IMG/VR virus record: IMGVR_UViG_2778261301_000008
Location: 1-29,154 of that record
Origin: a virus
Taxonomy: Duplodnaviria; Heunggongvirae; Uroviricota; Caudoviricetes
DNA length: 29,154 nucleotides
Reading direction: 5' to 3' (one strand)
The notes below the pieces were generated by a model, which was given only the letters and a program-made list of their open reading frames with translations, was not told the DNA's origin and ran no database searches. Position numbers and translations under genes: made by a program. Every line of letters begins with the position of its first letter. The stretch's first letter is position 1. Positions 4,472-27,949 of this stretch are shown here, piece after piece.

Positions 4472-5112
4472 TTGTCGGTGTACCTCTCTCGTTTGCTCAG
4501 TTGTTCAGGAATATGGTGCAGCAGCTCGCCGTCGCCGCAGTAAATTGCGGCGTGATTCGGCACCGATGAACCAAAACAGCACAGCAGCACATCGCCCGGC
4601 TGTGCCGCTGACAACGGCACCTGATACAGCCCTGTGGCCTCCAGATTATCCAGATAGAGATTCTGGCCGTTACGCCACCAGTCATCCTCACGATGAAAGT
4701 CCGGCATCTCAATCCCCGCCAGATGATAAGCATCCCGGAACAGCGTGTAACAGTCCGTCACCCCGTGATCAAAGCGCCTTCCGGTCAGATGTGGCACGCA
4801 GCGGAATTTATGGAGAGCCCCCCGACAGACCAGCCACCACGGCAAATCACTCTGTACCTGCAGCTGACGGTCGGCTTCACTCAGCCAGGGCAGACCACCG
4901 GGATGGCTGTGGACCAGCGCCACCACCTCGCCCTGTATTTGTGCCCGCAGCCAGTCTTCCGGTACCATCCGGAAACACGCCTCCGGAGTACCGGAGATAT
5001 TCACGCAGGGAAGATACCTTTCCCCCTCCGGCGTTCTCACCACGAAGCCGCACGACTCCGCTGGCGCACATCGCCGGGCGTGCGCCAGAATCGCTGATTC
5101 AGTCTCTGTCAT
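4369..5112 (-). CDS. K: Tail assembly protein K (MPN/JAMM plus NlpC/P60 domains)
   Basis: Track ORF 4369-5187 trimmed to internal ATG (MTETESAILAHARRCAPAESCGF...), which matches the recalled lambda gpK N-terminus; HSHPGG motif present. Confidence 0.88.
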   Translation of the reverse strand: MTETESAILAHARRCAPAESCGFVVRTPEGERYLPCVNISGTPEACFRMVPEDWLRAQIQGEVVALVHSHPGGLPWLSEADRQLQVQSDLPWWLVCRGALHKFRCVPHLTGRRFDHGVTDCYTLFRDAYHLAGIEMPDFHREDDWWRNGQNLYLDNLEATGLYQVPLSAAQPGDVLLCCFGSSVPNHAAIYCGDGELLHHIPEQLSKRERYTDKWQRRTHSLWRHRAWRASAFTGIYNDLVAASTFV

Positions 5113-5116
5113 GGAT

Positions 5117-5815
5117 TTACTGCGAAAGTTTGTTAATGGAAAGGAAGCCGCCAAAGTTGCCGACGTTATTGCGAAACTTACAGCCACTCAGGCATTTGCT
5201 GCATTTATCCTTCGTGATATCGGACGTCGGCTGGTCATATTCATCCGCGACCGCCGGACCGTTATAACCGCACTCATCGCCTCGATAGGTCCAGGTGCAG
5301 GTGTTGGCCAGCATGATACGGCCCGGAAAAACAGCGCCATCCGTTTCCGTCGGTGTGGACAGTACAAAAGAGGCACTGACCGCACTCAGTTCGCTGCACT
5401 GCTCGATGCGCCAGCGGCTGATCACCTCCTGCTCCGGATCGGCGTCACTGTTTCCGTTGACGAAGTTCACCGCATCCAGAAAACGGGCGTAAACCTTACG
5501 CCGGACCACCGTTCCGCCGACTAGACTCTGCAGATCTTCCGCCATCCCGGTGACCATGCCGTGCAGATTAGAGACTTTCAGCGTTGGCCTTGCACTGGCT
5601 CCTTTGCCGTTCATCTCAAATCCACTTCCCTGAATGGGATAGGCCTGATACTGCCGCCCCTGCCAGGTGACTGGTTCACCTTTTTCGTTCTGCTCATTAC
5701 AGAAGAAATAACGATCTCCGCCGACCTCTGTCAGATCAATTTCCCAGAGCACGACCAGCGCGGATTGCTCCGCTTTTGTACACTCATTCAGTGTTTCCTG
5801 CTGTATATCCTGCAT
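5117..5815 (-). CDS. L: Minor tail protein L
   Basis: 232-aa ORF, same length and position as lambda gpL, with a Cys-rich C-terminal segment. Confidence 0.88.
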   Translation of the reverse strand: MQDIQQETLNECTKAEQSALVVLWEIDLTEVGGDRYFFCNEQNEKGEPVTWQGRQYQAYPIQGSGFEMNGKGASARPTLKVSNLHGMVTGMAEDLQSLVGGTVVRRKVYARFLDAVNFVNGNSDADPEQEVISRWRIEQCSELSAVSASFVLSTPTETDGAVFPGRIMLANTCTWTYRGDECGYNGPAVADEYDQPTSDITKDKCSKCLSGCKFRNNVGNFGGFLSINKLSQ

Positions 5816-12764: not shown

Positions 12765-13988
12765 TTACGCAGCGGCTTTCTGGCGGGTTGCAGCACCGAT
12801 CTTCATCAGCTTAATCGCCTGAGAATCCACCAGCATACCGCCGGTTCGCTTGGTGGTATAAAAACCCACGAACGGCTTGTTGGTATACGGGTCGCGCAGG
12901 ATACGGGTACCGATGCGATCAACGATGGTATAGCCACGTTTAAAGTTACCAAACGCAATGGCTTTTGCATCGGCGGCAATATCCGGCATCTGCTCATTTT
13001 CAACGATGCCATACCCTGCCAGAGAAGAAGGCTGACCCAGCTCAATGCCCGGACGCCACAGATAATTTCCGTCGTTATCCTTCAGCAGACGAATGGCAAA
13101 CAGGCTGCTGTTGTTCATCATAAACTTCGCGCCGCTGCGGTGCGCCTTGCGCAGGGTGTAAATCAGTTTAATGATCGCATCAGCGGTCACGCCGGAAGCC
13201 GCACCGGAAGCAATGTGCTGAAGTTTGCCAAACGCACGGGTCTTGTCATCTTCATCAGTGGACTCATAAGCCAGAAAACCTTTTGGTTTTTTGCTGCCGT
13301 CGCCACTGGTAAAGGCAATTTCTTCCTGTTCGGCAAATTCCAGCGCCAGCTCACTGTTGATCCAGTCTTCCACATTGAAGAAAGCATCATCGAGCATTTT
13401 CTGGGTAGCCTGCGGGTTGCCGTAGATTTCCCCCATAAAGGGTTCAATCAGCCCCAGTTTTGAGGTGGCGGTTTCCGGACGTGCATCCGTTTCCCCCACC
13501 CATCCGGACGTTGTGCCGCCCAGATTCACCAGTTTTTTATAATCCGAGCCCCCGAGGGTGATCACAGTGGCTTCCTGGCGCATCACCACCTCATCTTTCA
13601 GTAGCGTCAGAATGGTGCGATCCAGTTCTTCCGGAATGGCATAACCGCCATCTTCATCATTGCCCACCTGCAGCGCCTTACGCTCCAGCTCACGCAGGCC
13701 GTCTTCACGCCCCTTGCGCATAAATCCGATAAACGCTTCTTTGTGTTCACTGGCAACTTTATTTTGCGTGCCGCCTGCCGGACGCTTGATGTCTGCCAGC
13801 TCTTTTTCCAGGTCGCTTTTCAGGTTCTCCAGCTCGCTGATTTGCCCGTTCAGGCTTTCCACCTGTTCGGCCAGCTTGCCTTTTTCCTGTTCGATCGCGT
13901 CAATGCGCTTGTCGTTTTTTGCCTTAAAATCGTCAAACTTCTGCTGCAGCTCCTGCGCGACCTGCTCCACATCTTTAATGTCAGCCAT
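12765..13988 (-). CDS. Major capsid protein, HK97 fold, with N-terminal delta (scaffolding) domain
   Basis: 407-aa ORF; N-terminal ~100 aa coiled-coil (KLAEQVESLNGQISELENLKSDLEKELADIK); directly follows the prohead protease; AGGAG Shine-Dalgarno. Confidence 0.9.
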   Translation of the reverse strand: MADIKDVEQVAQELQQKFDDFKAKNDKRIDAIEQEKGKLAEQVESLNGQISELENLKSDLEKELADIKRPAGGTQNKVASEHKEAFIGFMRKGREDGLRELERKALQVGNDEDGGYAIPEELDRTILTLLKDEVVMRQEATVITLGGSDYKKLVNLGGTTSGWVGETDARPETATSKLGLIEPFMGEIYGNPQATQKMLDDAFFNVEDWINSELALEFAEQEEIAFTSGDGSKKPKGFLAYESTDEDDKTRAFGKLQHIASGAASGVTADAIIKLIYTLRKAHRSGAKFMMNNSSLFAIRLLKDNDGNYLWRPGIELGQPSSLAGYGIVENEQMPDIAADAKAIAFGNFKRGYTIVDRIGTRILRDPYTNKPFVGFYTTKRTGGMLVDSQAIKLMKIGAATRQKAAA

Positions 13989-16065: not shown

Positions 16066-17823
16066 TTAAAGCGAGCGAATACCAACGCTGACCAGATGCT
16101 CAGACAGATCCGGCTCCGGTTCACCGCCATTGACCAGCATCCGGCTCATTGCTGTAAACATCGCAACAGGGCCGTCGATTTTGGCTTCCGGCGTGGATTT
16201 ATTCGGGAAGATATTGTCGTTTTTGTCCGGTTTTACCGTAACGTTAGACATCATCCAGTTCATGACCGGATGATTGCTGTGGTGGAAACGTCCGGCATAA
16301 ACCAGTGATTCCGTTTCCTTCATGGCCTCTGACAGATTGCGGACCGTCTGCGGAACCTCCACCAGCGGTATCCCTTCTTCAGCCAGTGCCAGGCTGAACT
16401 GCATTGCGCTCCACGGGTCAAATCCCAGTTCCCTGAGGTTTTCACCGCCAATCCATTCCAGTAAGTCACTTTTTATCTGAGCATGATCGATAACATCACC
16501 ATCCGTCAGGATGAGCTTATCCATCTCCGCCCACTTCCGGTAAAGTTCTGCCTGCTGCCGTGAACACCGTTCCAGTCGCCCTTCCGGAAGCCAGAATTTA
16601 AAATCGGCATGAACATGCCCGTTATCCGTTCGCCAGAGTTTTGCCGCCGCACAGATATCAATCTTATGAGCAAGGTCGACGCCGACCCACATGGGATACG
16701 TTTTCAGCTCATGTCGTGGGGCGATGTATTCGCACTTCTCCCACTTAATCATGTCCATCCAGGCCGATTCGGCAGTGACCCACACATTCATGTGTTTCGT
16801 GAAAAAATTCACCCGCGCCGAGACCTGCTCCTTCGCCTTTTTCGCCAGACGACGCAGATCATCCCAGCGTTTACAGATGCCCAGGCCGGGATTCGCTTTC
16901 TGCCAGACCGTTTCATCAAACGGATCATCTCCCTCATCGAGCGTGTAAATAATTGCAAAGTAGGAGTCGTCTTTTACCGCGCCCTCCACGTCGCTGTTAT
17001 AGCCTCGCAATACCTTGATGGCGTAATCGCGTTGCTCGTAACAAATCCCTTCCTTGTTAAAGCCCGCCGTGGTGATACCAAATAACAGGGACTGCAGACG
17101 GGCACCGGTTGCCGTTTCCAGAACGTCCCACACGTCGCGGGTTTTATGTGCATGCAGCTCATCAATAATGGCGCAGTGGATGTTCAGACCGTCCAGGTTG
17201 TTTGCATCCGAGGAAAGGGGTTCAAATTTTGATGCGCTCTGCTCCTGGTAGATCGCCAGCTTGTTGAAATCAAACAATCGCCCGAGTGTCGACCGGGCTT
17301 TTCTGACCATATTTTTGGCGTCTTCAAACACGATTCTGGCCTGGTCACGCGTGGTTGCGGCTGAATACACCTCAGCCCCGCCTTCACCATCTGCCCCCGT
17401 CATATACAGACCGATACCCGATGACAGGGTTGATTTTGCGTTTTTACGGGCAACTTCGTTGTACGCCGTCCGGAACCGGCGCACCATCACCGGGCGTCCG
17501 CTGCCATCGCTGCGCATGACAACTTCCCCGGTCTCTTCATTCACCAGCGGAATGACAAAACCAAAAATATTAATGAGGATAAATACATGCCAGTCCATCA
17601 ACTCAATGGGCTGACCTGCCAGCGCCCCTTTCACATGGGGCACAAATTTGTAGAAATTCAGGATGTGCTGCGCACGGGGTTCACTGAAATAAATCCCCCG
17701 CTCTTCGCCGTACTTCAGATCATCAAGAAAACGCTGGCAGGCCAGACGGACAAATTCGCCAGCGACAATTTCTCCTGCAACAACACGTTCGGCGTAGCGG
17801 ATCCCGTCAGCCACTTTTGCCAT
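16066..17823 (-). CDS. Terminase large subunit
   Basis: 585-aa ORF with N-terminal ATPase-like and C-terminal nuclease-like regions, located between TerS and portal. Confidence 0.93.
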
Positions 17824-18305
17824 CAGTCTCTCGCTTTTAAAAGCTCTGCCAGTGGATCAACATCATCCGGTCCGGCGGTATTTACTTTCGCCCGGCTTGC
17901 CGGTGACATACCAAACTCTGCAAGCATCGCCCGGATCCGCTTCCAGGCATCCGCCTTCATCGCCGCAGCCGGATGTGCCTTGATCATCACATCGCCATTC
18001 TGCGTTTCCGTGCGGTAGGTATAACCCTCAACATCGAGTGTTTCGCAGTGATGCCGGTATTCGATGTAGGCTTCCACCAGTAACTCGAGTGCACGCGCAT
18101 CAAGCTGAGAAATGATCCCTTCCGCATTCAGTTCTTCCGCCATTCGCCTGAACCAGTACTTCCCCTGCGCCCCTAAATGTTGCGGAATTTTAGGGAGACC
18201 TTTTTCATCCTTTTTAGCGGTTTTTTTTGGGTCTTTAACGGGGCGCTTTGAGGGGTTGCCTCGTATCAAATGCAGGCGTGGCGGGGTTTTCTGGGGTCCA
18301 GGCAT
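17823..18305 (-). CDS. Terminase small subunit (P27 family)
   Basis: 160-aa ORF with a basic N-terminus (PKKTAKKDEKGLP), overlapping the terL start. Confidence 0.85.
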   Translation of the reverse strand: MPGPQKTPPRLHLIRGNPSKRPVKDPKKTAKKDEKGLPKIPQHLGAQGKYWFRRMAEELNAEGIISQLDARALELLVEAYIEYRHHCETLDVEGYTYRTETQNGDVMIKAHPAAAMKADAWKRIRAMLAEFGMSPASRAKVNTAGPDDVDPLAELLKARD

Positions 18306-18534
18306 AATCGGTTTTACCTATCAATCATTTAATCACATTCCAAAAAAAAGTTTTCGAACCTGCGGCGATGCGAGGAAAGGTCAGGCGGCGGTACTGAGCA
18401 GCCTGGGTTGCAGAGATTTGATCCCCCCCCTCCCCCTTGAAGATGGCGGCAAAAAGCAGATACTGGCCATCCATCAGGATGCTCAGCATGGTGTATTCAG
18501 TTAATCTCAATAAATAAAAGATGGAGTCTAAGAA

Positions 18535-19050
18535 ATGGATAAAACCAGAAAATATGACAGAGCCTTACAACTTGAAATCCTCAATACCCTTATAGATTGC
18601 GCGCCTCACTCTTTAAACAAGGCACAGGAGCGAGACCTCATTGAGAAGTTTGACAGTTACGATCACTTTGTGGCGTGCATGTTATACCTTGAAATGCATG
18701 GTCTCGTTTCTACTCCCTTCTTACGCAGCGATACCATGGCTGGCGTTGATTTTATCTTCAATGCCGCGTACTGCAACATTACAGAGAAAGGAATTGATTT
18801 TCTTCTCGATGATAGCGGCTTAAGTGCGATCCTTAAAGTTCAAACCGTTCGGTTACACAGTGACACGATTGTTGCCCTTGAGGATATAATCCGTGTCTCA
18901 AATATATCTGAAGATCAGAAGAAGGGATTGATTTCAAAACTCCGAGAGCTTCCGGGAGACGCCATAAAACATTTGACCCTACAGTTACTGACTCAGGGGG
19001 TTCTGAATCTGCCGAACGCACTTCGACTAATTCAAACAACCCTCCAGTAG
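18535..19050 (+). CDS. Hypothetical protein (171 aa) of unknown function; low-GC gene on the opposite strand
   Basis: Plus-strand ORF with GGAG Shine-Dalgarno 8 nt before the ATG; visibly lower GC than the flanks; predicted helical and soluble; I recognise no family. Confidence 0.6.
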   Translation: MDKTRKYDRALQLEILNTLIDCAPHSLNKAQERDLIEKFDSYDHFVACMLYLEMHGLVSTPFLRSDTMAGVDFIFNAAYCNITEKGIDFLLDDSGLSAILKVQTVRLHSDTIVALEDIIRVSNISEDQKKGLISKLRELPGDAIKHLTLQLLTQGVLNLPNALRLIQTTLQ

Positions 19051-19185
19051 GGCTAAACTCATCTGAGGGGCGAATTAACTCAAATTTGCCCCATCCCAGT
19101 TTTTCACTTAAAACAACCCAAAATCCCTCCCGGGTATCTGCATGAATATAGAAACTATTTTTATGCATTACAGCAGTGAATATTA

Positions 19186-19536
19186 TCATCGAATACGTTC
19201 CCTTGCTGTCTTCGCTCTGTGGCATTCCAGGCATAACGACTCAAGATTGGAGTCATCATCGGTGCCGCCATGAGCTTTTGGAATGATGTGGTCTACAGCC
19301 CTGGCCTCAACGGCTCTCCCATTGCGCAGGCAGTTCTGACACAGATGATTATCACGCTTCAGTATGCGCGCACGTATGGCATCCCATTTCGAGCCATAGC
19401 CACGCTGGTGGCGACTCAGTCCGCGTTGATGCTGTACCCATCCTTCGCCACGATGTTTATCGCAGTAACCAGAACTGTCTGTGGTTGTACCTGCGCATCC
19501 ACGCTTACGGCAGGCGCGTGGGATTCGTGATGGCAT
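19186..19536 (-). CDS. HNH endonuclease (packaging-associated, HK97 gp74-like)
   Basis: 116-aa ORF with Cys pairs and H-N-H motif residues (DHIIPKAHGGTDDDSNLESLCLECH); its position upstream of cos/terS is typical of HK97-like phages. Confidence 0.85.
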   Translation of the reverse strand: MPSRIPRACRKRGCAGTTTDSSGYCDKHRGEGWVQHQRGLSRHQRGYGSKWDAIRARILKRDNHLCQNCLRNGRAVEARAVDHIIPKAHGGTDDDSNLESLCLECHRAKTARERIR

Positions 19537-19543
19537 TAATACC

Positions 19544-19744
19544 TCACACCATGTTCAGTTGAATGACGGGCTGATTCTCGATATGTTCTGCTGTCAGTCT
19601 GAAAGTCACAGTGACTGTTGGTGGCTCGCCTCCGCGTGACTCTGTCCTGGCGGAAAGCTGCCCTTCCAGTAACTCACCATCAACTGCAATCCCATACCCT
19701 ACGAAATGTTTACCACGATAAAGTTTTGCCAGTTGGTAATTCAT
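19544..19744 (-). CDS. Hypothetical protein (66 aa)
   Basis: ATG overlaps the stop of the upstream small gene (ATGA), suggesting translational coupling. Confidence 0.45.
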   Translation of the reverse strand: MNYQLAKLYRGKHFVGYGIAVDGELLEGQLSARTESRGGEPPTVTVTFRLTAEHIENQPVIQLNMV

Positions 19745-19980
19745 TTGCCTGCATCCTCCAGCGACAACCCAATTCGCCCATGAAGCAATGTGGCCGATAC
19801 AATCCCGGCATTACACTCAACGGTTATATCTTCATCCGTGGCATCCACTTCATATATTCGTGAATAACATTCCGTGCATTTACCACTGAATGTACCTTCA
19901 GCCAGAACACGACCACGCTGTAAAATCCGAAACGGGATTCTTCCATTAAAGAGCTTTGCGGTTACCAGTAATTTCTTCAT
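19741..19980 (-). CDS. Hypothetical protein (79 aa)
   Basis: Track ORF trimmed to ATG (MKKLLVTAKLFNGRIPF...) with AGGAGA Shine-Dalgarno. Confidence 0.5.
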   Translation of the reverse strand: MKKLLVTAKLFNGRIPFRILQRGRVLAEGTFSGKCTECYSRIYEVDATDEDITVECNAGIVSATLLHGRIGLSLEDAGK

Positions 19981-20002
19981 ACATTCTCCTGATAACAAAA
20001 GG

Positions 20003-21418: not shown

Positions 21419-21634
21419 TTACTCTCCCCGTGCAGCCTTACGCTTGTCTTCTCTGATTTTGAAGTACAGATTTGTCAGATAAGTCAGGAAGCCCAGAACC
21501 AGACTCCCCAGTACACCAATCGCAGCCCACTGTGACGGACTAACCTGATCAAGCCACCGTAAAAACCAGTAGCCAGCACTGCCTGCGGAGGTGCCGTAGG
21601 CAATGCCCGTTGAAATTTTGTCCATGGATTTCAT
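21419..21634 (-). CDS. S: Class II holin S21-type pinholin with dual start motif
   Basis: 71-aa [71 protein letters not shown], nearly identical to my recollection of phage 21 S; Met1/Met4 dual starts. Confidence 0.9.
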
Positions 21635-21926: not shown

Positions 21927-22001
<75 letters not shown>

Positions 22002-22003
22002 AT

Positions 22004-22079
<76 letters not shown>

Positions 22080-22204
22080 CGCTGGTTCCTCGGGTGTGAA
22101 TGAGATGCCCGGATACATAATTTACCCTTCCCTCGGAACCGCAGAGATAATACAAATAAATAACCAGAATTCAATATTTGCTTATTCGTCTGTCGAAAAA
22201 GTCA

Positions 22205-22374: not shown

Positions 22375-23196
22375 CTATCGCGTTACCCTCTTTAACTGCC
22401 GCTCCGCCCATGACTCTTCAATGTCAAACCGAACCACCAGCGTATCGTAAAAACGCTTCACTGATTTTTTCCACGTATCAAGAGTGATAGCGCTCGTCAC
22501 TTTGCATATGGCATTAAACGCCTCTGTTGACGGCAATCTTTCATAGCCACGACCACCACAACGCTGGCAGTCTCTGATAACAGGCATACCACGTTTTACC
22601 GACTCTTCACGATGAATGGCGACACCACGCCCACGGCAATCCTTACAGGCGGTGGAGACCTCACCCTTTCCCCCGCATTCAGGACAGGCAACTTTTACCA
22701 CTTCCCGGACTTTTTTCCATTCTTCCCAGTAAGACGGATACACGCCTTTTGTACACTTTGCCCATACTGGCGGCTTGCCATCCGGATACTGGACCTTGTT
22801 TGTAAAAACTACGCTTTCAATAAATTTTTTCCCACCGCAACAAGGGCACTGTTTTTTACTCGCTGCACTGCGGGCATAATCCTCAAAAGCGTACGAAGCC
22901 ATAATGCGCATCACTGCCGGTTTTATTTCTGCCGGAAGTTTTCTCAACGCCGCCACGCGATCGCACCGACTGAGTGCATAATCTGCCAGTAATTCTGTTG
23001 CCCGCGCCCTGTCATTCATACTGATGCCCATTTTCCCCAGGAACGCAGAAAATCCCATCTCAGCCCGGTTTTGTGTCATACCCTGCGCAGCCATCACATC
23101 AGTGATGCTCAGCGCATCTTTTGACGTCGAGGCGGATGCATCAGTCAGTCCTAGCGATTTTGGGGAATAGTATTTCGGTAAATCTTCCAGCTTCAT
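22375..23196 (-). CDS. Antitermination protein Q-like, with four CxxCxGxG zinc-finger repeats
   Basis: 273-aa ORF directly upstream of pR'/tR' and the lysis genes; ATG overlaps the rusA stop (ATGA); repeats CPCCGGKK, CPECGGKG, CKDCRGRG, CQRCGGRG. Confidence 0.65.
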   Translation of the reverse strand: MKLEDLPKYYSPKSLGLTDASASTSKDALSITDVMAAQGMTQNRAEMGFSAFLGKMGISMNDRARATELLADYALSRCDRVAALRKLPAEIKPAVMRIMASYAFEDYARSAASKKQCPCCGGKKFIESVVFTNKVQYPDGKPPVWAKCTKGVYPSYWEEWKKVREVVKVACPECGGKGEVSTACKDCRGRGVAIHREESVKRGMPVIRDCQRCGGRGYERLPSTEAFNAICKVTSAITLDTWKKSVKRFYDTLVVRFDIEESWAERQLKRVTR

Positions 23197-25809: not shown

Positions 25810-26150
25810 CGTAAAACATCCTCCACGCTTATCAATCCGTTCCGCTCCAGATAACTCATCGCCTTATCCGGTAATTTGCAGTCTGGCTTCGCTTTCCTCA
25901 GTTGCCAGGCTAACTGCTTTACCTGCATAGTTAACTCGTCGACCAGACGCTGATACCCCACTGGTTTGTATTCATGCAATTTACCGGCTGGCTCTGCTGC
26001 CAGCGATACCAGTGCGATTTCCAGAACAGCAATATCCATCTTATATGTGCGGATGATGTCATTGTCGATTGTGCCCGGTATGCACAATCTCTGTGCTTCA
26101 ATAGTCTCCTCTGCGTGAGCTATTAACTGCTCTCTGGTAAAAGTCGTCAT
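25806..26150 (-). CDS. Hypothetical protein (114 aa)
   Basis: ORF with ATG overlapping the HNH gene stop (ATGA). Confidence 0.5.
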
Positions 26151-26512
26151 GCCGTAGCCCCTTCTTGATATTTTTCAAACCAGAACACAACTGGGTCAGA
26201 TTTCATTTCAACCAATCCCATACGAACCAGCGCCTTGCCTTTCCCGGACGCAAGGAATTCACGACGACCATCACTGATAATTCGCCGATAATCTTCCAGG
26301 CTACTGCAATGCTTGTGCAGATTGCATGGGTGGCATGCCGGAACCATGTTGGATATATCGTCACGTTCCTGGTGAAGCATATTTCCATCAAAACGGATGA
26401 CCGGTTTTACATGGTCTGCATGCCACTTTTCGCCAAGTTCGCAGCCGCAATAAGCGCAGCGACCACCGAACTTCATGCGCAGTTCTGCACGTTGTTTTTT
26501 CGTCAGTGACAT
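26147..26512 (-). CDS. HNH endonuclease
   Basis: CAYCGC...HADHVKP...CHPCN motif; AAGGAA Shine-Dalgarno. Confidence 0.8.
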
Positions 26513-26513
26513 A

Positions 26514-26732
26514 TCAGCTTTCCTTATACGGATTAATTTTATTGTGTAGTGTGTTGAATGGTCCCCATATCACATCGGTATATAACTCAATAATAGGTTC
26601 AATTATTTTCACGATTATCCAGACAAAAATTAGCGGGGATATCGGTATCATCAACACGATAAACAGAATGAGAAACAAAAATTCTGTCGCTCTACTCTTT
26701 CGCGGATATTCTTTTCTGAATAATGTAGTCAT
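26514..26732 (-). CDS. Hypothetical small membrane protein (72 aa), AT-rich
   Basis: Hydrophobic core FLFLILFIVLMIPISPLIFVWIIVKII; stop abuts the HNH gene start. Confidence 0.5.
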   Translation of the reverse strand: MTTLFRKEYPRKSRATEFLFLILFIVLMIPISPLIFVWIIVKIIEPIIELYTDVIWGPFNTLHNKINPYKES

Positions 26733-26764
26733 TTCTTACCGCCCTTTCGGGCGGCCTCCTGACA

Positions 26765-26977
26765 TTAATCGTTGTGATAACTCATAGCTTCATTTGCAGC
26801 ATCAACTGGATCAACATCCCACCAGCAATAATTTGGTTCGACTCCTTCAGGTGTCCACGGCTCTAATTCATTTTTTGCCGCATTCTCGTCGCCAGTAATT
26901 TTAAAAATCTGCTCAGAAAATTTCCTCACCCACTCGTTATATTTTTCCGCATTAATGGTTTTCTGTGTATTTAACAT
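26765..26977 (-). CDS. Hypothetical acidic protein (70 aa)
   Basis: ATG with GGAGG Shine-Dalgarno; followed by a GC hairpin (CCGCCC-gaaa-GGGCGG) before the membrane-protein gene. Confidence 0.5.
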   Translation of the reverse strand: MLNTQKTINAEKYNEWVRKFSEQIFKITGDENAAKNELEPWTPEGVEPNYCWWDVDPVDAANEAMSYHND

Positions 26978-27027
26978 AGATATACCTCCAGTTAAGGATT
27001 TGATTTTATTTACAGTGCTAAATTTAT

Positions 27028-27384
27028 TTATTCAGTTCTGGATTTCGTCGCCCTGCGTATCCGCGCTTTCGCGTTACGCTCAATCTGAATTAACTTTTCT
27101 ATATTTTTCCGTCTTTCCTGTTCCTCCTGGCGCAATAGCCTTACATCATCTGCCAGTCTGGTTTCTCTTTTCGCCACAGAGAGCATCCAGTCAAACGGCT
27201 CCACAACTGCACCGCAGATTTTACAGCGGACCTGACGCTCTTTTTCGTCAACCCGGACAGAAGCGTGATGACAATATGGTCTTTCCGATGGCTCATAAAG
27301 AAAATTAACCTGATTACGTGGGTCATCCTCTTTTACCGGAAATAAAACAATATTACTTAACTCATCTTCTGGTTTGATTTCCAT
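27028..27384 (-). CDS. Hypothetical Zn-ribbon protein with C-terminal basic coiled coil (about 118 aa)
   Basis: Track ORF trimmed to ATG (MEIKPEDELSN...) with GGAGAGGAG Shine-Dalgarno; CHH...CKIC motif. Confidence 0.5.
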   Translation of the reverse strand: MEIKPEDELSNIVLFPVKEDDPRNQVNFLYEPSERPYCHHASVRVDEKERQVRCKICGAVVEPFDWMLSVAKRETRLADDVRLLRQEEQERRKNIEKLIQIERNAKARIRRATKSRTE

Positions 27385-27949
27385 GCTCCTCTCCTTTGAT
27401 GCGAATGCCAGCGGCGCGTGGCACATTAGCTTCCACGATGCGCACAGTTGGTTTGTACATCTCAATCGCTGCCAGCCAGTCAGCTCCTGTCATGCGCTTT
27501 TCTGCATCGCCATTAGTCCACTGAACCGGTACACCAATAGCCTTCATCGCAATTTCTATTTCCCCGGCAATGGCGCTTTTTCCGCAACCAGTAAAACCAG
27601 ATACAACGACAAGAACTTCGCCCTTGGCCGGTTTTATTTCCCGCGCTTCCAGCTCTTTAACGCGCTCCTCGAGTTCGTAGACTCTGCATTGTTCTTTATC
27701 ATCAATCAGATATAACCCAAGACATTCGCTTTCTACCCAGCCACCGAAATCATGATCGTAACGCTCACATGAAAACTCACCGTCGCTGTCCTTTGTTGGG
27801 ATGGTGTAGCTATCTAATGGGCCACCATACGTCGGCACATTTCCCAATGTCGGATGCTCAATCCACATGAAAAATGCACGTCCGGTTATTGGGCAAATAT
27901 CTGGTCGCCATTGGTTACTCACTGGTTGCCTCCTGGAAAATAACTGCAT
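27362..27949 (-). CDS. Hypothetical protein (195 aa) with Walker A-like motif
   Basis: N-terminal region resembles phage DUF551-type proteins (weak recollection); C-terminal SGFTGCGKS fits the GxxGxGK[ST] pattern. Confidence 0.5.
   Translation of the reverse strand: MQLFSRRQPVSNQWRPDICPITGRAFFMWIEHPTLGNVPTYGGPLDSYTIPTKDSDGEFSCERYDHDFGGWVESECLGLYLIDDKEQCRVYELEERVKELEAREIKPAKGEVLVVVSGFTGCGKSAIAGEIEIAMKAIGVPVQWTNGDAEKRMTGADWLAAIEMYKPTVRIVEANVPRAAGIRIKGEEHGNQTRR

Follow-up and report, generated by a model that had tools for sequence, protein, structure and literature searches.

Between the HNH endonuclease gene and terS of a Caudoviricetes prophage, we found an insert of about 760 base pairs (bp) that carries two genes on opposite strands with long overlapping 3' ends. 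The sequence analysed (IMG/VR record IMGVR_UViG_2778261301_000008, positions 1 to 29,154; hereafter the window, 29,154 nucleotides (nt) in length) comprises the late region of a lambdoid prophage of the HK97 type, whose late genes are on the minus strand. One gene of the insert, on the plus strand, encodes a winged-helix protein of 171 amino acids (aa), and the other, hidden on the minus strand, encodes a 118-aa protein that had escaped annotation. With a probability of roughly 45%, we read the insert as a mobile two-gene prophage module of a new family for defence and self-immunity, organized as a noncontiguous operon.

Two genes in a convergent overlap

The 171-aa gene extends from 18535 to 19050 on the plus strand, against the minus-strand late genes, and starts with an ATG preceded at a distance of 8 nt by a GGAG ribosome-binding site (18523-18526). 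It is richer in AT than its flanks, with a guanine-plus-cytosine (GC) content of 0.436 compared with 0.534 for terS and 0.544 for the HNH gene. The initial annotation had described all of these features correctly. It had also stated that the product matched no recognized family, which holds only in part. In Pfam we found sub-threshold hits alone (YjcQ and the protein A B domain), and neither NCBIfam nor PADLOC (2023 release) gave a match, but the protein does match PHROG 3983, a family of unknown function, with an E of 1.2e-55 over residues 5-171 against profile positions 2-164 of 165, and it is widespread rather than private to this phage.

A word-indexed search returned 177 homologues of 160-174 aa across Enterobacterales, all annotated as hypothetical, in genera that include Citrobacter, Enterobacter, Pantoea, Pectobacterium, Serratia, Yersinia, Proteus, Xenorhabdus, Salmonella, and Klebsiella. 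When cluster representatives (50% identity) were searched with a profile, 1029 clusters passed E<=1e-3 and 822 passed E<=1e-10, and nearly all of them share one length and architecture. Genome and phage searches extended the family to Pasteurellaceae, Neisseriaceae, Moraxella, and Pseudomonas, Acinetobacter, and Halomonas phages. The family is thus widespread in temperate phages of Gammaproteobacteria, with a few members in Betaproteobacteria, and is essentially absent from true plasmids. Our literature search found no paper describing it, and nothing functional on YjcQ or DUF2513. Another 170-aa hypothetical gene, on the opposite strand in the interval between Q and the holin gene of E. coli C311 (L014, 23089-23601), was considered as a second copy and turned out to be unrelated (BLASTP E 0.6). 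Judged from its conservation, the 171-aa open reading frame (ORF) is a real gene and not a chance ORF.

The initial annotation took this gene for a single-gene system and named the antisense ORF 18833-19234 as a possible real gene in its place. The single-gene view did not survive, and the second suggestion was half right: the antisense ORF is, by the comparative evidence given below, a second conserved gene once its start is corrected to 19189, and the 171-aa gene is real too. The corrected gene (18833-19189, minus strand) runs on the late strand and encodes a 118-aa protein whose sequence starts with MIIFTAVMHKNSFYIHADTREGFWVVLSEKLGWGKFELIRPSDEF and later includes SNVLWRLPEALGVLKS. The ATG of the gene overlaps the TGA stop codon of the HNH gene as ATGA (19186-19189), which, as read from the sequence, is a translational-coupling arrangement. 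An AGGGA Shine-Dalgarno-like motif (19199-19203, minus strand) lies 9-10 nt upstream of the ATG, and a purine-rich motif of the same kind precedes the start at almost every locus. The 135 bp that follow the 171-aa stop codon are conserved even where the protein is only ~50% identical, and they end in ...TTTTCAT at every locus. The start of the small gene lies 118-145 nt past the stop codon of the large gene in most enterobacterial loci and up to ~255 nt past it in Acinetobacter, Pseudomonas, and Pasteurellaceae loci. The upstream ATGs at 19234 and 19225 were rejected as starts; both fall within the HNH gene, and it is at 19189 that the conserved start (MKIF/MIIF) and a ribosome-binding site are found.

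Among 31 non-redundant pairs, the small ORF is 89-119 aa long and keeps the same relative frame. AlphaFold2 (AF2), run from 15 sequences, predicted a five-strand beta domain for residues 1-70 with a predicted local distance difference test (pLDDT) score of 85-92, spanning the boundary of the overlap; a helix completes the predicted protein. Only 17 database proteins match the small gene, compared with more than 1000 clusters for its large partner, and it is not annotated in the PGAP or GenBank records inspected.

The two coding regions share 218 nt (18833-19050), in which codon position 3 of the plus-strand gene faces codon position 2 of the minus-strand gene. The small gene overlaps the last ~55-72 codons of the 171-aa gene, and the frame relation is identical in all intact pairs, including those of Acinetobacter, Pseudomonas, and Pasteurellaceae. 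The overlap measured 128-230 nt in an initial set of loci and 122-224 nt when the 31 non-redundant pairs were used. One could argue that only the 171-aa gene is real, as a single-gene moron, and that the minus-strand ORF is a by-product of its conserved sequence. Conserved genes do have conserved antisense frames, and the small ORF was not called as a coding sequence of its own in the annotated records inspected. The pattern of substitution makes this explanation very improbable. In the non-overlapped part of the large gene, the antisense frame contains 6.9 stops per 100 codons, while it is open over 41-75 codons of overlap at 17 of the 17 loci tested. It should be noted that zero stops in the overlap is true by construction, the overlap being defined by the ORF; the informative quantities are the run length and the outcome of resampling. 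When codons were resampled synonymously with the same protein retained, the antisense frame stayed open in only 0.05-1.45% of the trials per locus (P 0.0005-0.0145), far less often than its openness in nature would require.

The 46 first codons of the small ORF, which lie outside the 171-aa gene and are preceded by the ribosome-binding site, differ at codon positions 1/2/3 with frequencies of 0.36/0.26/0.60 in the 31 non-redundant pairs and 0.40/0.30/0.63 in 14 loci, a periodicity indicating that the small gene is protein-coding. The large gene responds to the overlap in turn: its synonymous codon divergence is 0.60 over residues 1-116 and 0.27 over residues 117-171. Residues 91-116 are conserved equally at the protein level and yet retain a synonymous divergence of 0.62, and the drop therefore marks the overlap and not the conservation of the protein. 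The confident beta fold that crosses the overlap boundary also argues against a by-product. A natural control is provided by a sub-family of the large gene that differs at the C-terminus (L035, L037, and L039; Klebsiella phages ST405-OXA48phi1.3 and ST13-OXA48phi12.5), which sits between tail genes, has stops in the antisense frame, and has no small gene. By these comparative measures, both genes are under purifying selection.

Whatever its function, the pair is one of the clearer examples, on comparative grounds, of long antisense overlap between coding regions in bacteria or phages, with both frames conserved across many genera and the suppression of synonymous sites confined to the overlap. 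Long antisense overlapping genes have been reported in E. coli O157:H7 (PMC9927249). As in those cases, a coding ORF lies antisense in an annotated gene and was missed by gene callers; unlike them, the overlap in the window is partial and involves the 3' ends, both partners are under comparative purifying selection, and the pair forms a mobile phage cassette.

Insertion, mobility, and strand orientation

The insert (18436-19197, both strands) is bordered by the cos-proximal segment upstream of terS (18306-18435), which is shared with phages that have no insert and lies outside the cassette. In vB_EcoS-640R1 and the Stx phage phi467, the HNH gene directly adjoins this conserved 130-bp segment, indicating that the ~760-bp stretch is a true insertion. 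Alignment with these two relatives placed the left break point at ~18436, after a C-rich tract, and the right one at ~19197, in the last codons of the HNH gene. The C-rich tract CCCCCCCCTCCCCC (18424-18437) marks the left junction, which is identical in Citrobacter werkmanii (L022), and insert-less phages read CCCCTCCCC at this place. In a megablast search against phage records, the entire 880-bp interval between terS and the HNH gene was matched by one record, Escherichia phage PhiR49_2, at 97.6% identity, and the first ~130 bp beside terS were common to nine other phages without the rest of the interval. The GC content of the insert is 0.423, that of the window is 0.519, and an equal AT-richness was found in just 1.6% of 762-nt windows. 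In E. coli, the insert is uncommon, being present in 28 of 5426 complete genomes, and every copy is chromosomal and annotated as a hypothetical protein.

The term moron, in a usage said to go back to Juhala and colleagues in 2000, reportedly denotes extra DNA that is present or absent between similar phages, deviates in base composition, and has its own promoter and terminator. The insert shows the presence/absence pattern, since 640R1 and phi467 share its flanks and lack it, and it has the deviant GC content. The initial annotation's call of a moron-type insertion at the hotspot between the HNH gene and cos, AT-rich and on the opposite strand, is thus borne out by the comparison with relatives.

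The cassette is found at several other positions. It lies between the HNH gene and terS in the window, C311, and PhiR49_2 and upstream of the HNH gene in another E. coli prophage. Salmonella, Klebsiella, and E. marmotae carry it between Q and the holin gene, and in Proteus it is flanked by the tape-measure and minor tail genes. The large gene of Acinetobacter phage AbIPP1 follows cI on the strand of cI; that of Edwardsiella phage GF-2 belongs to an operon of overlapping starts with an Mnt-like regulator, divergent from arc-ant; and that of Pseudomonas phage P54 is flanked by cro and cII in antisense orientation, with the small gene starting immediately after cro. The positions at Q-holin, among tail genes, at arc-mnt, and in the immunity region rule out a link of the cassette to packaging or cos. 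Both genes were full-length in 75 of the 80 viral contigs found through the small protein, a proportion favoured by the fact that one of the two search patterns lies in the overlap. Either gene can be broken with the other intact: the large gene is frameshifted next to an intact small gene at L022, L033, and L042, and the reverse is seen at L011 and L028. By its distribution, the cassette is a unit that moves between prophage hotspots.

The orientation of the pair follows its surroundings. The large gene opposes the flanking lytic genes at nearly all loci, and the small gene always runs with them; in 22 further genomes, the large gene is typically the lone plus-strand gene amid runs of minus-strand genes. 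Across many phages, the arrangement thus reads as a rule, holding at nearly all loci, by which the large gene is on the lysogeny strand and the small gene on the lytic strand. At many loci, an intrinsic-terminator-like hairpin with a T-run precedes the small gene just before its ribosome-binding site, and elsewhere, as in the window, the small gene is tightly coupled to the preceding gene.

This distribution also bears on whether the two genes have anything to do with each other. Overlap alone forces co-inheritance, and the pair could consist of an ordinary late accessory gene and an independent moron, functionally unrelated and locked together by overprinting. The sub-family of the large gene without a small gene is consistent with this, as are three viral contigs (L121, L123, and L124) in which an intact small gene faces a different 148-aa ORF on the opposite strand and the winged-helix gene is present as a remnant only. 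In L124 (1501-2248), the small gene has 152 aa and the last ~35 codons of the winged-helix gene remain, reflecting either a swap of partners or decay. We nevertheless consider unrelated genes unlikely. The pair has long been kept in one fixed frame from Enterobacterales to Acinetobacter, Pseudomonas, and Pasteurellaceae; it shifts as a unit among unrelated positions in late and early operons, unlike a late gene bound to its module; and the lysogenic-strand/lytic-strand rule suggests a functional relationship.

Proposed function and its alternatives

Our comparisons show that the pair is inherited and moved together, that it obeys the strand rule, and that its layout matches that of known defence/antidote pairs. 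Prophage defences that come with their own lytic-phase antidote form a small class, which comprises Tab/anti-Tab, Tai/Ati, Tha, and BstA/aba. In the module we propose, the 171-aa winged-helix protein would be made from the lysogeny strand and would interfere with other phages, by defence or exclusion. The 118-aa beta-rich protein would be made from the Q-dependent late operon only when the prophage goes lytic, as suggested by the coupling of its gene to the HNH gene through ATGA within that operon. It would then neutralise the 171-aa protein as a protein antagonist, and late transcription running convergently through the 218-nt overlap would contribute to silencing the 171-aa gene. In a noncontiguous operon, a concept attributed to Saenz-Lahoya and colleagues in 2019, a gene of opposite orientation reportedly lies inside an operon and is overlapped by the operon transcript. 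The order of the HNH gene, the small gene, the antisense of the 171-aa gene, cos, and terS fits such an operon. We infer the timing of expression, the anti-phage activity, the antagonism, and the target of the 171-aa protein from the way in which the pair is organized.

The closest layout is that of Tab and anti-Tab in the Pseudomonas aeruginosa phage JBD26. Tab has been shown experimentally to block tail assembly through the tape measure protein (PMC10884400), and gene 30 (anti-Tab), on the late strand, overlaps terS by 1 bp (Patel et al. 2024, PMC10884400). In the JBD26 record, gene 30 (13377-13628, plus strand) and tab (13582-13833, minus strand) converge with a 47-nt overlap. Both pairs place a gene in the defence position opposite the late operon in the packaging region, with a late-strand partner coupled to the upstream packaging-region gene, through the 1-bp overlap with terS in JBD26 and through the ATGA overlap with the HNH gene in the window. 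In both, the genes converge and their 3' ends overlap, by 47 nt and 218 nt, respectively. The pairs differ in that Tab and anti-Tab have 83 aa each, as opposed to 171 and 118 aa, and in that the overlap of the window is four to five times longer, with dual coding conserved across many genera. The function of Tab was established by experiment, whereas that of the pair in the window is a proposal.

A second parallel is found in phage phi80, where taiEcA (orf63, 204 aa) occupies the opposite strand in the interval from the lysis genes to cos; the lysogen expresses this gene, whose product prevents other lambdoid phages from assembling their tails (PMC11364771). The product of atiEcA (orf64), on the Q-dependent late strand, counteracts TaiEcA, and the authors described the arrangement as a noncontiguous operon (He et al. 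2024, PMC11364771). The sites listed for Tai homologues are 'before terS', 'between lysis genes', 'between tail genes', and the 'Arc-mnt region' (PMC11364771). As in Tai/Ati, the window pair consists of an opposite-strand prophage gene in the same set of hotspots and an adjacent small late-strand gene; taiEcA and atiEcA, however, are divergent with a 20-nt 5' overlap, whereas the window pair is convergent with a long 3' overlap. The 50-odd other Tai versions are connected by PSI-BLAST links at 20-30% identity, and some are 507-528 bp in length (PMC11364771). One of them may belong to the 171-aa family, as our comparison covered the TaiEcA clade alone. By eye, an RNDLAHN motif in TaiEcA (phi80, L046, 4366-4980) resembles the Rx4H HEPN-like signature; Pfam gave no match for this protein.

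Lambda rexAB and P22 mnt are accessory genes expressed in the lysogen. The AbIPP1 gene downstream of cI and the GF-2 gene in an operon with an Mnt-like regulator occupy positions of such prophage-expressed genes. Unlike the window family, rexAB and mnt have no overlapping partner on the lytic strand, and their proteins are unrelated.

The domain organization of the 171-aa protein comprises a winged helix (residues 1-91), a conserved GIDFLxDDGGLSAIL linker, and a four-helix C-terminal domain. The winged helix is closest in fold to MarR-family repressors and YjcQ, with a fold like that of 2hgc. The match to YjcQ (PF09639) scored 13.3 bits, below the gathering cut-off of 23.3, and weak YjcQ hits were obtained for 12 of 57 family members, with a best E of 8e-4; YjcQ (2hgc) lacks counterparts of both the conserved linker and the helical domain at the C-terminus. 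Homology to protein A (PF02216, B domain) was rejected. The Pfam score was 13.3 bits against a cut-off of 27, and the E of 6e-9 with the PDB profile comes from summed repeats, the per-domain E being 10-50; we treat this hit as a resemblance at the level of a three-helix motif in residues 103-145.

A 15-bp near-palindrome, CTGGCCATCCATCAG (family consensus CTGATCAnnTATCAG), lies at 18463-18477 on the plus strand, 58 nt before the ATG of the 171-aa gene, and may be an operator or part of a promoter. The window contains a single copy, and the motif recurs 58-59 nt upstream of the gene at L016, L021, L022, L024, L036, L029, L033, and L008. This element and the fold underlie the main rival explanation, in which the pair is a regulator and an anti-regulator: the 171-aa protein would be a dimeric winged-helix DNA-binding regulator of the lysogen, and the small late protein an antirepressor-like lytic antagonist. 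Binding to the upstream palindrome would allow the regulator to control its own gene, and promoters of the host or of phages may be further targets, in lysogenic conversion or auxiliary immunity. The likeness to MarR-family repressors and YjcQ, the fixed position of the palindrome at many loci, and co-transcription with cI-like (AbIPP1) and Mnt-like (GF-2) repressors all speak for it. On the other hand, the N-terminal domain is acidic throughout the family (median net charge -5, isoelectric point 4.9) and variable, and its predicted recognition helix has no conserved basic residues. Conservation peaks in the linker and the C-terminal domain and not on the DNA-reading surface, and the loci of Salmonella, E. 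marmotae, Acinetobacter, and Pseudomonas have no such palindrome. We regard a regulator pair as the less probable explanation, though one with a real chance of being correct.

Several results weigh against the defence/self-immunity module. No homology of either window protein was detected by hhalign to Tab or gp30 (probability 0.10% and 0.14%), to TaiEcA (0.14%), to a 13-sequence alignment of the TaiEcA clade (0.11%), or to AtiEcA, the range over all comparisons with known systems being 0.10-0.24%. Together with the missing PADLOC match, this means that the functional claim rests on analogy of organization. The winged helix and the conserved upstream palindrome suit a DNA-binding regulator at least as naturally, and the AF2 model of the C-terminal domain reached moderate confidence only. 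A consensus scan of 18250-19300 gave no sigma-70-like promoter, and manual inspection revealed no convincing -35/-10 pair, so that a promoter of its own is presumed for the 171-aa gene. The terminator just before the small gene at many loci could equally mean that this gene is poorly expressed. The existence of a sizeable sub-family without the small gene implies that some members can dispense with an antidote.

The 3' region of the plus-strand transcript contains a stable hairpin, GGGGCGAAUU/AAUUUGCCCC (19067-19092), followed 7 nt later by U5; it is a putative terminator of uncertain role. The fold of 19035-19215 has a z of -4.05. Two conserved motifs of the small protein, GWGKF and LIRP, are encoded by the hairpin arms as well, and Salmonella and E. 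marmotae retain the GC-rich stem core although the flanking pairs have changed. Given the retained core and the z value, RNA structure may add to the constraint on 19067-19092.

Convergent transcripts with overlapping 3' ends are also the layout of several prophage type I toxin-antitoxin systems, such as bsrG/SR4 of B. subtilis, and winged-helix and helix-turn-helix domains are frequent among antitoxins. An addiction module could therefore take the form of type I-like convergent transcripts or of a winged-helix antitoxin with a small toxin. The small protein, however, is predicted to be a soluble beta-domain protein of 89-119 aa and not a short hydrophobic peptide, the genes converge and do not form a co-directional operon of the type II kind, and no model in PADLOC or NCBIfam matched; the region 18000-19600, including the hairpin, had no match in Rfam. 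Because its strand is expected to be silent in lysogens, the small gene would not serve as a constitutive antidote. This expectation, the non-hydrophobic small protein, and the finding of either partner broken with the other intact make a classical toxin-antitoxin system highly unlikely.

In its broader form, which we put forward tentatively, the proposal is that of a widespread and unrecognised family of temperate-phage modules. Each would combine a winged-helix anti-phage protein expressed in lysogeny with a lytic-phase antidote encoded on the opposite strand, and the dual-selected overlap of 120-230 nt would act as a toggle between lysogeny and lysis and prevent separation of the two genes by recombination. 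Its range would be that of the large protein, whose >800 clusters (50% identity) extend from Enterobacterales to Acinetobacter, Pseudomonas, Pasteurellaceae, and Neisseriaceae. If the proposal is correct, a new and very common protein family would join the prophage defences with their own lytic-phase antidote, and three unrelated families would have converged on one opposite-strand layout. Because the small gene is missing from essentially all annotations, half of a second gene would be cloned or deleted unnoticed in screens that treat members of the 171-aa family as single-gene morons. E. coli offers a direct test system, for instance through PhiR49_2 of strain ECOR13.

Other features of the window

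The neighbours of the 171-aa gene all lie on the minus strand. TerL (16066-17823) and the P27-family TerS (17823-18305; PF05119, E 7e-26) are encoded on one side of the insert, and the HNH endonuclease (19186-19536; PF01844, E 2e-16), upstream of the small gene, on the other. The late region further includes genes for Rz, a lysozyme, a DUF1327/YdfR protein, a holin (21419-21634, minus strand), and the Q antiterminator (22375-23196). A minus-strand ORF of 61 aa (18325-18510), annotated in some genomes, was considered spurious; it has no family match and straddles the boundary between the cos-proximal segment and the 5' leader. In the PhiR49_2 record (L001, PV340570), a plus-strand ORF of 61 aa is annotated at 4881-5231 over an intact 116-aa HNH gene on the opposite strand, which is probably a mis-annotation.

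Two ORFs of 66 and 85 aa between Rz and the HNH gene (19544-19998, minus strand) had no Pfam match. Genes for tRNA-Gly(tcc) and tRNA-Thr(tgt) are located at 21927-22080 on the minus strand, between the Q antiterminator and the holin gene; the same tRNA pair is carried beside stxAB by the Stx phage phi467, and the window has no stx. A second stretch of low GC content (~26276-27260, about 0.40) is the minimum of the window and may be another cargo region. Its ORFs (26955-27308, plus strand; 27362-27949, minus strand) had no Pfam match, and a small HNH/NinG-like ORF (26147-26512) adjoins it.

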